Program-made: the position numbers and the translations under genes
Shown here: positions 33,245 through 34,880 of the stretch, in pieces
Position numbering within the stretch: the stretch's first letter is position 1
How the letters are laid out: every line of letters begins with the position of its first letter
Virus record (IMG/VR): IMGVR_UViG_2778261394_000006
Span: 1 to 47,808 of that record
DNA: 47,808 nucleotides
Direction: 5' to 3' (one strand)
Origin: a virus
Taxonomy: Duplodnaviria > Heunggongvirae > Uroviricota > Caudoviricetes
The notes under the pieces: model-generated
Databases searched by the model: none
What the model was told of the DNA's origin: nothing
What the model saw: the letters and a program-made list of their open reading frames with translations, nothing else

Positions 33245-34342
33245 ATGACAATTTCATATATTCCTATTCTGAAAGCGAAACGTTCTGAGTTATCAGCTTT
33301 ATCGCAGCTATCCATTGAAAAGAAATCAAAAATTTTGCCATTACTCGAAATTGAACCAGTGCCAATTGACCCTGATTCAGGTATTGCCTTAAAGAGTTAT
33401 AACGAGACTCTTATAGAGTTCGGAAAGAAAGTCTCAAAATCTTGCTCAGATATGCAAGGTGTTTATATTGATGGATTATTAATTGAAGAGCATTTTATTT
33501 CTCCTGAAGATCATTACCCTATAATAAATGCGGTTAATCAAGTTAGAGATATGGGGATAAGAGTTATTCCTGTCAGTTCACCAACTCGCCCATCTAACTA
33601 TAAAAGAGCGATTGATGAATTAATGCAGAATGAAATATGCTTGAGATTAACCACGTTAGATCTGGTTAACCCACAATTAATAACGCATTACATTAATCAT
33701 CTGGGAATTCCTTTATCAAATATTGATATAATTATTGACTTAAGAGATGAGTTAACCGAGGATAAACTTAATTCCGGCGAACTATATACTTTGGCAATGG
33801 GATTGATAAACAATCTGGCGCACCTCAATGAATACAGAAAAGTGATTCTTTCTGGGGGTTCATTTCCTACAGATCTCAGTGATATTTCTGTTGGTCTATA
33901 TTCTCAACCTCGAATCGAGTGGATTTTATGGCAGAGTTTAATGAATAGAAAAGAACTTGCCAGAAATGTGATTTATAGTGATTATGGAGTACAGCACCCC
34001 GACTTTAATAGGCTTTCGACGCGATTCCCTAGCGTATCTGCCAGCGTCAGATACTCTGGAGATAATGACTTTTGGGTATTTCGAGGAAGAGTAGCTAATC
34101 GCTTTGGTTATGAACAATATGGTAAACATAGTGAGGATATTCTTGCTCATCGAGAATATTCAGGGCCTACATTCTGTGCGGGAGATAGAGACATAGAATA
34201 TTATGCAAACGAGTATCAAGCCTACAAAGCCAATCCCTCTGGTAACTATAAATTTGGTAGCCCAGAGGTATGGCGTAGGATTGGGCAAAACCATCACATA
34301 ACTAAGGTTGTTGAGCAACTCGCCACTCTTTACGGGCTTTAA
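33245..34342 (+). CDS. Uncharacterised protein with beta-protein/sce7725-like N-terminus (MTISYIPILKAKRSELSAL)
   Basis: 365 aa ORF on the strand opposite to the operon; AT-rich; family from recollection of N-terminal motif only. Confidence 0.6.
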   Translation: MTISYIPILKAKRSELSALSQLSIEKKSKILPLLEIEPVPIDPDSGIALKSYNETLIEFGKKVSKSCSDMQGVYIDGLLIEEHFISPEDHYPIINAVNQVRDMGIRVIPVSSPTRPSNYKRAIDELMQNEICLRLTTLDLVNPQLITHYINHLGIPLSNIDIIIDLRDELTEDKLNSGELYTLAMGLINNLAHLNEYRKVILSGGSFPTDLSDISVGLYSQPRIEWILWQSLMNRKELARNVIYSDYGVQHPDFNRLSTRFPSVSASVRYSGDNDFWVFRGRVANRFGYEQYGKHSEDILAHREYSGPTFCAGDRDIEYYANEYQAYKANPSGNYKFGSPEVWRRIGQNHHITKVVEQLATLYGL

Positions 34343-34880
34343 GTTTAACTCGAACAGCTTCACGAAGCTCGCCAACATCCATACTATTGGCGAGTTTTGA
34401 CCATAAGACGCGTTTAGGTTTATTTTTCAAATTCTGTAGCTCCCCTACATCACTTAATAGGGAAAGCAATTCATCTTTCCAAAGAAGCATTGTTAAGGAA
34501 AGTTTGTCCACTTGTGGATTCAACTTGCTAGTTCGAATTGTTTTTAAATGGATACCTTGCCGTGCACCTTGCGTAACTTGCTTTATCCCCCACCATGATG
34601 GAACTATGCTTAAAGCATCATAAAGATGGCAATCAGAGACAACCAACGTTACTTTATCCATCACTGATGAGTAATGTTGCACCTGCGCTGGTAATCTGAG
34701 CAAGTTATCACTCTTGCTCTTCAACTCATAACCATGTATAAGCCCATTGATCACTGCTATATCAGCTCTGCTAGCCCCTAGATTCATCGTAAACTCATCA
34801 ATGATTAGGGTGTCAGGATCTTTATGATGATCTCTCAGAATCTTGGCATGCACAGCCTTTCTTACATCAATGTCTCTCAT
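34302..34880 (-). CDS. Uncharacterised PD-(D/E)xK-like protein (sce7726-like), convergent with and overlapping previous gene by 41 bp
   Basis: 192 aa; motif IIDEF...RADIAVINGLIHGYELKSK (D-x11-ELK). Confidence 0.6.
   Translation of the reverse strand: MRDIDVRKAVHAKILRDHHKDPDTLIIDEFTMNLGASRADIAVINGLIHGYELKSKSDNLLRLPAQVQHYSSVMDKVTLVVSDCHLYDALSIVPSWWGIKQVTQGARQGIHLKTIRTSKLNPQVDKLSLTMLLWKDELLSLLSDVGELQNLKNKPKRVLWSKLANSMDVGELREAVRVKLKARKEWRVAQQP

Follow-up and report, generated by a model that had tools for sequence, protein, structure and literature searches.

A convergent two-gene module in an AT-rich prophage island

The window, that is, the whole 47,808-nucleotide stretch of DNA analysed, represents a complete Rac-like lambdoid prophage of E. 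coli, carrying an integrase, RecE/RecT, the RalA sRNA, replication genes, a DUF1133/Q-like antiterminator, and lysis and structural genes. Between hok/sok and the nin-like genes lies a low-GC accessory island of ~2.2 kb (~32870..35065; GC 0.377 compared with 0.474 for the whole window), whose limits are given by related phages lacking the module, which align up to ~32869 and resume at ~35066; in phage vB_EcoS-813R8 the same slot is filled by other small genes. The island holds two convergent genes, a Beta-family gene of 365 aa on the + strand (33245..34342; GC 0.373) and a cII-like gene of 192 aa on the − strand (34302..34880; GC 0.411), which share 41 bp at their 3′ ends. An earlier reading of this DNA, made from the letters alone (the sequence-only reading), had given exactly these reading frames and this overlap, and had described both genes as AT-rich, as the GC values bear out.

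The surroundings of the module were largely as described before. The hok toxin noted next to the pair agrees with an Rfam match to sok at 32682-32857 (−), directly left of the island, and with a hokD annotation in the homologous E. coli locus. The non-coding DNA amounts to ~0.8 kb, with 500 bp to the left of the pair, where the sok region is counted in, and 305 bp to its right, and not to the ~1 kb first estimated. Likewise, the statement that the pair runs against the surrounding operon holds for the Beta gene only, as the replication, nin and Q genes all lie on the − strand, co-directional with the cII-like gene. The locus was present in 91 of 5,426 E. coli genomes; the window copy is intact, with 98.5-99.3% identity to E. 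coli carriers among the matches listed, and in 99%-identical E. coli loci the PGAP pipeline calls both CDSs as here, labelling them ‘beta family protein’ and ‘sce7726 family protein’.

Families and predicted folds of the two proteins

Profile searches assigned both proteins to families with scores far above the cut-offs, showing that the two ORFs are genuine genes rather than chance reading frames. The 365-aa protein matched Pfam Beta_protein (PF14350) over its full length (179 bits, cut-off 27; residues 5-356 aligned to model positions 1-341 of 342), and its best PADLOC matches, both near full length, were to the PD-Lambda-2_C models PDLC03983 (1.4e-41) and PDLC03984 (3e-38). The P4-type ‘beta’ model of PADLOC gave a bare match, confined to the N-terminus (2e-4). 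The 192-aa protein scored 191.1 bits against NCBIfam sce7726_fam (NF033832; cut-off 70), covering positions 1-183 of the 184 in the model. It also belongs to Pfam Phage_P4_cII (PF26915), the PADLOC ‘cll’ family, an assignment that was taken from precomputed annotation of a 99%-identical protein and of all homologues among the matches listed, as the Pfam set scanned here contained no PF26915 model and left P4 cII itself unmatched.

These assignments bear out, with one refinement, the families proposed by the sequence-only reading. Beta_protein and sce7726 were recovered by profile, whereas the sce7725 subfamily was not: the window Beta reached 12.3 bits against a threshold of 60 for sce7725_fam (NCBIfam NF033831), with only the N-terminal 35 residues aligned. 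Compared with the sce7725/sce7726 pair, named after Sorangium cellulosum locus tags (NF033831/NF033832), the locus thus combines a clear sce7726 member with a Beta protein that falls outside the sce7725 model. In the literature searched, we found no function assigned to sce7726 where it is mentioned, and no functional study of PF14350, PF26915 or sce7725/sce7726.

The restriction-endonuclease-like motif noticed by the sequence-only reading in the 192-aa protein was substantiated by conservation and by structure prediction. Residues E29, D40, E52 and K54 (E52-x-K54) are kept in at least 90% of 75 family members, are invariant in two alignments that include P4 cII, and sit on strands 1-3 of the predicted model, which shows a restriction-endonuclease-like core. 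The model comprises a PD-(D/E)xK nuclease fold followed by a C-terminal helical domain. The structure that it matched best was 3dnx, an MmcB-like protein, and a homologue goes by the name ‘DNA repair protein MmcB-like’ in one source; with 3dnx, the Can2 nuclease domain and NucS, the cII-like protein has in common an alpha-beta-beta-beta-alpha-beta core and the acidic/Lys catalytic constellation. Unusually long members of the cII family were inspected for domain fusions, and were explained by read-through or mis-called starts, with no extra domains.

For the Beta protein, AlphaFold2 predicted a (beta/alpha)8 TIM barrel. In this model, conserved acidic and basic residues are placed on the catalytic face, at the C-terminal ends of the strands; the fold matches obtained by structure comparison are generic and do not indicate a chemistry. 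Solved structures contained no sequence relatives of either protein. A restriction-modification-like arrangement would have Beta modify the host's own DNA or nucleotide pool and the cII-like nuclease cut unmodified incoming DNA. However, Beta is not recognisable as a DNA-modification enzyme: searches of Pfam, NCBIfam and PADLOC gave no match to methyltransferases or to any other family of DNA-modifying enzymes, and by structure comparison it resembled TGT and DpdA no better than unrelated TIM barrels. We consider this arrangement quite unlikely.

Leaders, promoters and repeats

The Beta gene is preceded by an AT-rich non-coding leader of 375 bp (32870..33244; GC 0.347), which presumably contains its promoter. 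The sequence-only reading had proposed a near-leaderless promoter, TTGTTA-N17-TATTAA, and both hexamers are present at 33215-33243. They match only 8 of 12 consensus positions and so were not returned by our promoter scan; furthermore, the −10 hexamer ends 1 nt before the Beta ATG, so that the transcript would begin within the ORF, a geometry incompatible with translation from that ATG. We therefore rejected this candidate. Instead, a weak Shine-Dalgarno motif (AAGG) is found 7 nt before the ATG, so that the true promoter probably lies farther upstream. For the cII-like gene, the consensus scan returned ATGGCA-N18-TAGAAT (34918..34947, − strand; 9/12), which is held as a candidate only, as the number of such sites in the region is not above chance expectation. 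The scan gave no convincing promoter or terminator in the region.

The flanks were also examined for further elements. No conserved small ORF was found in the Beta leader, where PGAP annotates nothing, and comparison of 27 stop-to-stop pieces from both flanks with ~90 related loci returned one marginal, probably spurious match, so that a hidden third small gene was discarded. Neither non-coding flank showed nucleotide conservation against these ~90 loci. A 13-nt element, ATCAAATGGCATT, occurs at 33033..33045 (+), 212 nt upstream of the Beta ATG, and forms an inverted repeat with an identical second copy at 34940..34952 (−), 72 nt upstream of the cII-like ATG and overlapping the candidate −35 hexamer. 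A repeat of this length was reached in none of 200 shuffles; although significant within the window, it was absent from 13 related loci, which ruled it out as a feature of the family.

The antisense overlap is kept in one register

The overlap of the two 3′ ends (34302..34342) is dual-coding and antisense: one strand encodes Beta residues 353-365 (TKVVEQLATLYGL) and the opposite strand cII-like residues 180-192 (LKARKEWRVAQQP). Among 71 non-duplicate pairs from related loci, 68 have a 3′ overlap, of 11-167 nt (median 53), and in all 68 its length equals 2 modulo 3. Other phases were seen only in three non-overlapping pairs, those of P4, L011 and L012; escape from the overlap is possible, as P4 shows. 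The register extends to the conserved residues themselves. In 47 of the 56 pairs in which both motifs could be placed, the distance from the conserved Trp codon of cII (LKxRxxWR) to the second His codon of the Beta motif NHHxTxVxxQL is exactly 28 nt, and among overlapping pairs that depart from this distance the genuine deviations are whole codons.

Because a single reading-frame phase is used and the shared nucleotides specify homologous, conserved residues in the two proteins, the overlap is ancestral and has been retained across phyla. Its retention could reflect selection for coupled expression; it could equally be a frozen accident, a dual-coding trap that is hard to escape, with no selection for antisense regulation. 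A sequence scan detected no terminator-like element in or near the overlap, so that transcription from either side should continue antisense through the opposite gene. We found no description of a register-fixed antisense 3′ overlap kept across phyla in the literature searched.

Distribution and modularity of the pair

A scan with the cII-family alignment detected relatives in at least 413 species-representative genomes, and the family comprises 5,453 clusters (50% identity, E ≤ 1e-3). We examined 80 loci from Proteobacteria, Acidobacteria, Firmicutes, Actinobacteria, Chloroflexi, candidate-phyla-radiation (CPR) lineages and others, to which P4 was added (81 in total). The sequence-only reading had asked whether the pair and its convergence recur elsewhere, and they do: a convergent Beta-family ORF lies opposite the cII-like gene in 78 of the 81 loci, P4 included; of the three exceptions, two are truncated where a contig ends.

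Upstream of Beta, the gene content varies. At least 14 of the examined loci have a PD-Lambda-2_B gene immediately before Beta on the same strand (in L041, for example, the match is at 1.5e-130), usually together with a HigB-like A component. Sampling in the reverse direction, from PD-lambda-2_B homologues, gave the order [HigB]-Xre/M78-Beta converging on Phage_P4_cII in four of four contexts, with overlaps of 50, 50, 50 and 29 nt, all equal to 2 modulo 3. No mention of a cII-like fourth gene of PD-lambda-2 was found in the literature searched. The toxin module in turn occurs without beta-cII, as HigB/ImmA on the Acinetobacter plasmid p2_010055, a sign that the modules are separable. Elsewhere the genes upstream of Beta encode an Xre-S24 repressor-like protein, an FRG-domain protein (PADLOC PDC-S15), DUF6932 or a membrane protein with coiled coils that is reminiscent of Gop.

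Among the window's relatives in Enterobacterales most pairs stand alone, with no partner gene next to them on the same strand. A second E. coli variant occupies a prophage slot flanked by the lysis gene Rz and by Nu1, and the pair of Gordonia phage Powerball, with an 89-nt overlap, lies between HicAB and the integrase. Wide occurrence of beta-cII as a stand-alone two-gene unit was not found described in the literature searched. Neighbours of the pair in other genomes include Kiwa KwaB, dCTPase/dGTPase, type I and type III restriction-modification subunits, PADLOC candidate systems, integrases/recombinases and satellite-type primases, listed as observed occurrences rather than as an enrichment. 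This recurrence of stand-alone pairs in mobile, defence-rich contexts was counted in favour of a defence role.

A different possibility is that the pair serves the phage itself, in DNA repair, recombination or regulation, with cII acting as a regulator or as an MmcB-like repair nuclease. The structural match to 3dnx and the MmcB-like name of a homologue are in keeping with this, as are the historical derivation of the name cII from a lysogeny regulator and the solo cII-like gene of Myxococcus phage Mx4, which lies without Beta in a co-directional phage operon. However, the gop-beta-cII genes are non-essential in P4 (PMC9122126), the pair also resides on plasmids, chromosomal islands and in many other non-phage contexts, it occupies variable accessory slots rather than conserved phage modules, and in other lineages it is linked to toxin modules. 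Weighing these points, we regard a function in the phage's own biology as improbable.

Relation to gop-beta-cII and PD-lambda-2

The sequence-only reading recognised no named defence system at the locus. This view has to be revised: the pair corresponds to the beta-cII core of the P4 gop-beta-cII system (‘Gop_beta_cll’ in DefenseFinder/PADLOC) and bears the C component of PD-lambda-2. In P4, gop (247-648, +) and beta (651-1718, +) are followed by cII (1746-2540, −), so that beta converges on cII as in the window; the window Beta and cII-like proteins have 23% and 28% identity, respectively, to their P4 counterparts, and both loci occupy a non-essential accessory slot on an E. coli mobile element. 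Three differences were found. P4 carries gop, encoding a small membrane toxin, upstream of beta, whereas the window contains none (tblastn with P4 Gop across the window, best E 1.8); P4 cII bears an extra C-terminal tail of ~80 aa; and beta and cII do not overlap in P4, where they are separated by a 27-bp spacer with an annotated terminator. The gop-beta-cII system protects against lambda and P1 (Rousset 2022, PMC9122126), Gop being toxic without beta according to Ghisotti 1990, as cited in PMC9122126, and cell death via the system is triggered by the phage protein orf184 (bioRxiv 10.1101/2023.04.06.535777).

PD-lambda-2 consists of a HigB-like A, an Xre-M78 peptidase B, toxic on its own, and a ‘P4 antitoxin-like’ Beta-family C, which is required for defence and dispensable for toxin neutralisation (Vassallo 2022, PMC9519451). 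The window shares with this system its Beta protein, for which PD-Lambda-2_C is the best PADLOC match, and PD-lambda-2-type operons of many phyla bear a convergent, overlapping cII-like gene in the same phase. In contrast, PD-lambda-2 was published as a three-gene system without a cII-like gene, and its A and B components are absent from the window, a six-frame translation of which gave no match at E ≤ 10 to profiles of 8 A and 13 B proteins. The validated, published clone of PD-lambda-2 reaches only 396 bp beyond the end of the Beta gene. If the PD-lambda-2 locus of E. coli ECOR42 has a cII-like gene there, this clone would have truncated it and still defended, which would argue against cII as the essential effector in PD-lambda-2.

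Taken together, these comparisons identify the window pair as the core common to gop-beta-cII and PD-lambda-2, here standing alone, and thus as a probable variant within a known kind of defence. As judged from its gene content, the locus lacks a defining feature of each named system while bearing the components that they have in common. It is not a new kind of system, since annotation pipelines already name its genes and PADLOC includes its relatives. Recognition of beta-cII as a common, separable core of the two systems was not encountered in the literature searched.

The absence of gop and of PD-lambda-2 A and B raises the question of decay, in which case the pair would be what is left of a three- or four-gene system, now inert after loss of the toxin. 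To our knowledge, the defence-finder rules for gop-beta-cII and PD-lambda-2 require three genes, which would fit such a remnant. Nevertheless, both ORFs are intact with all conserved residues present, pairs that stand alone are also seen in many Enterobacterales, in another prophage slot of E. coli and in actinophages, and the existence of HigB/Xre-peptidase without beta-cII speaks for separable modules instead of one decayed unit. A decayed remnant is therefore the least credible of the explanations considered. We expect no PADLOC system call for the window locus, as the models matched belong to two systems, each of which lacks its other components in the window.

A further explanation is that the module acts as an addiction or stabilisation cassette, in which the nuclease would be a toxin and Beta its antidote, keeping the island or prophage in place without anti-phage activity of any consequence. 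A convergent antisense overlap is a well-established means of setting toxin:antidote ratios, as in type I toxin-antitoxin and restriction-modification systems, which counts for this explanation, and the island adjoins another addiction module, hok/sok. Furthermore, P4 gop and beta were suggested to form a toxin-antitoxin pair (Rousset et al., PMC9122126), PD-lambda-2 was classed as toxin-antitoxin-like (Vassallo et al., PMC9519451), and HigAB plus Beta was interpreted as island-stabilising by the Acinetobacter authors. Against it, both experimentally tested relatives confer phage resistance, and Beta shows the hallmarks of an enzyme active site, unlike a small labile antitoxin. Toxicity of a cII-like protein is unreported in the literature searched. 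Maintenance by addiction alone thus seems unlikely, if less so than the other alternatives.

A proposed role in phage defence

The candidate defence role put forward by the sequence-only reading is plausible, since homologous pairs lie within two experimentally validated anti-phage systems. By analogy with these, we propose that the locus is a stand-alone prophage form of the beta-cII core through which the lysogen resists other phages, either by excluding them or by abortive infection, a reading to which we assign a probability of roughly 0.55. Both genes would be expressed in the lysogen from their own promoters in the AT-rich island. The cII-like protein would be the effector, a metal-dependent PD-(D/E)xK nuclease, as suggested by its predicted fold and conserved catalytic residues. 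Beta, as a TIM-barrel enzyme or a sensor of a ligand, may hold the nuclease in check or license it, by analogy with P4 beta, which neutralises the toxicity of Gop, and with PD-lambda-2C, needed for defence and not for toxin neutralisation. A protein of the infecting phage, like orf184 for P4 gop-beta-cII, may then upset this balance and lead to DNA cleavage. Convergent transcription through the ancestral and almost universal overlap would produce complementary mRNA tails and could thereby link the expression of the two genes, and Gop, or HigB with the Xre-M78 peptidase, would be add-on modules of other lineages, absent here. The analysis itself establishes the homology to two validated defence systems, the folds, the conservation of the catalytic residues, the near-obligate pairing and the ancestral overlap; in this scheme we infer the direction of restraint between the two proteins, the trigger, the antisense regulation and the nuclease activity. 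Against the scheme stand the toxic components identified so far in the related systems, which are Gop and PD-lambda-2B and not cII (PMC9122126, PMC9519451), and the solo cII-like gene of phage Mx4, as would a cII-like gene truncated in the PD-lambda-2 clone, if ECOR42 has one. As the cII-like gene is co-directional with the early operon and Beta is opposed to it, one may also speculate that read-through at prophage induction shifts the cII-like/Beta ratio.

A broader version of the proposal, which we advance tentatively and with clearly less confidence, is that Beta and cII/sce7726 form an ancient autonomous two-component immune core whose overlap has been locked by expression coupling since the common ancestor of the pairs, that the named systems are lineage-specific elaborations of it, and that PD-lambda-2 has an overlooked fourth gene. 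In this version the core would consist of a TIM-barrel enzyme and a PD-(D/E)xK nuclease, a combination spread over bacterial phyla, plasmids and phages.

Should the two-gene form prove active, it would represent the minimal functional unit behind two named, mechanistically unexplained defence systems, and attention would shift from the add-on toxins (Gop, HigB/Xre-peptidase) to the nuclease and TIM-barrel core. Found in at least 413 species-representative genomes, and with a cII family of some 5,400 protein clusters, this core includes stand-alone loci that the current three-gene definitions miss. Furthermore, the locus provides a clean natural case of an antisense dual-coding overlap that is kept in one register across phyla, in which it can be tested directly how convergent overlap contributes to the balance of two genes whose products may be toxic.

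Exceptions and variants of the Beta/cII pair

The solo cII-like gene p30 of Myxococcus phage Mx4 (L093:2492-3061; 35% identity) is an exception to the near-obligate pairing of the cII-like gene with Beta: it belongs to a co-directional phage operon, and the 2.5 kb around it contain no Beta gene. A Pseudodesulfovibrio MAG has, immediately upstream of its Beta gene, a minus-strand gene (L053:7602-8087) for a 161-aa protein that combines a coiled coil and a transmembrane segment; this protein is similar in build to Gop, the membrane toxin of phage P4, shows no sequence similarity to it, and may represent an analogous membrane effector. 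Insertion sequences were also observed: IS1203 (IS3 family) elements interrupt the 3.2-kb region in the E. coli O111:H8 genomes among the nucleotide matches to the locus (H14-H24), and phage Rac-SA53 carries one IS1 within it. Furthermore, the beta/cII loci of L020-L025 and L029 are identical, and their source labels (MAGs or isolates) are Bordetella parapertussis, Bradyrhizobium and Afipia; this suggests that either a single mobile element or a contaminant common to these sources was binned into different genomes.

Upstream of both genes in the window, two identical copies of a 13-nt element, ATCAAATGGCATT, were found in the same orientation relative to their own gene, one upstream of the Beta gene (33033-33045, plus strand) and the other upstream of the cII-like gene (34940-34952, minus strand), where it overlaps the candidate -35 element. 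A repeat of this length was reached in 0 of 200 shuffles, and 13 related loci lack the element, which could be an operator shared locally by the two genes or a chance occurrence.

Other accessory genes of the prophage

The prophage holds two type I toxin-antitoxin loci, both on the minus strand: hok/sok (32532-32857; Rfam sok, 119.8 bits), which directly abuts the low-GC island carrying the pair, and RalR/RalA, whose RalA antitoxin sRNA maps to 46074-46252 (218 bits). The remaining candidates are likewise encoded on the minus strand. A 391-aa ORF (6869-8044) with an HSDR_N domain (type I restriction R-protein N-terminal, PD-(D/E)xK-like) lies in a low-GC patch (0.358) surrounded by baseplate and tail genes; it had no PADLOC match and may be another accessory nuclease. 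Two adjoining genes (26134-27850), encoding a homologue of the TET-associated glycosyltransferase TAGT (PF20691) and a protein with a ParB_N domain and a match to the N-terminal portion of a PADLOC type II methyltransferase model, look like a prophage DNA-modification or anti-restriction module. A 210-aa ORF (40538-41170) gave a sub-threshold match to the superinfection exclusion protein SieB (25.0 bits; cut-off 26). The AraC-family regulator gene (29664-30560) is located between the Q-like antiterminator and lysis genes, a position typical for lambdoid accessory (moron) genes.

The cII-like gene in PD-lambda-2-type operons

In PD-lambda-2-type operons, a convergent overlapping Phage_P4_cII gene regularly follows the genes for the HigB-like protein, Xre-M78 peptidase and Beta, both in the loci reached via PD-lambda-2_B homologues (L086-L089; for example, L086:3707-6887) and in L019, L037, L041, L043, L046, L051, L057, L073, L075, L076, L078, L080 and L081. 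The published three-gene definition of this anti-phage system (Vassallo 2022, PMC9519451) leaves this gene out. Should ECOR42 have such a gene, it would be cut short in the published clone (QOYB01000002 228989-232396).
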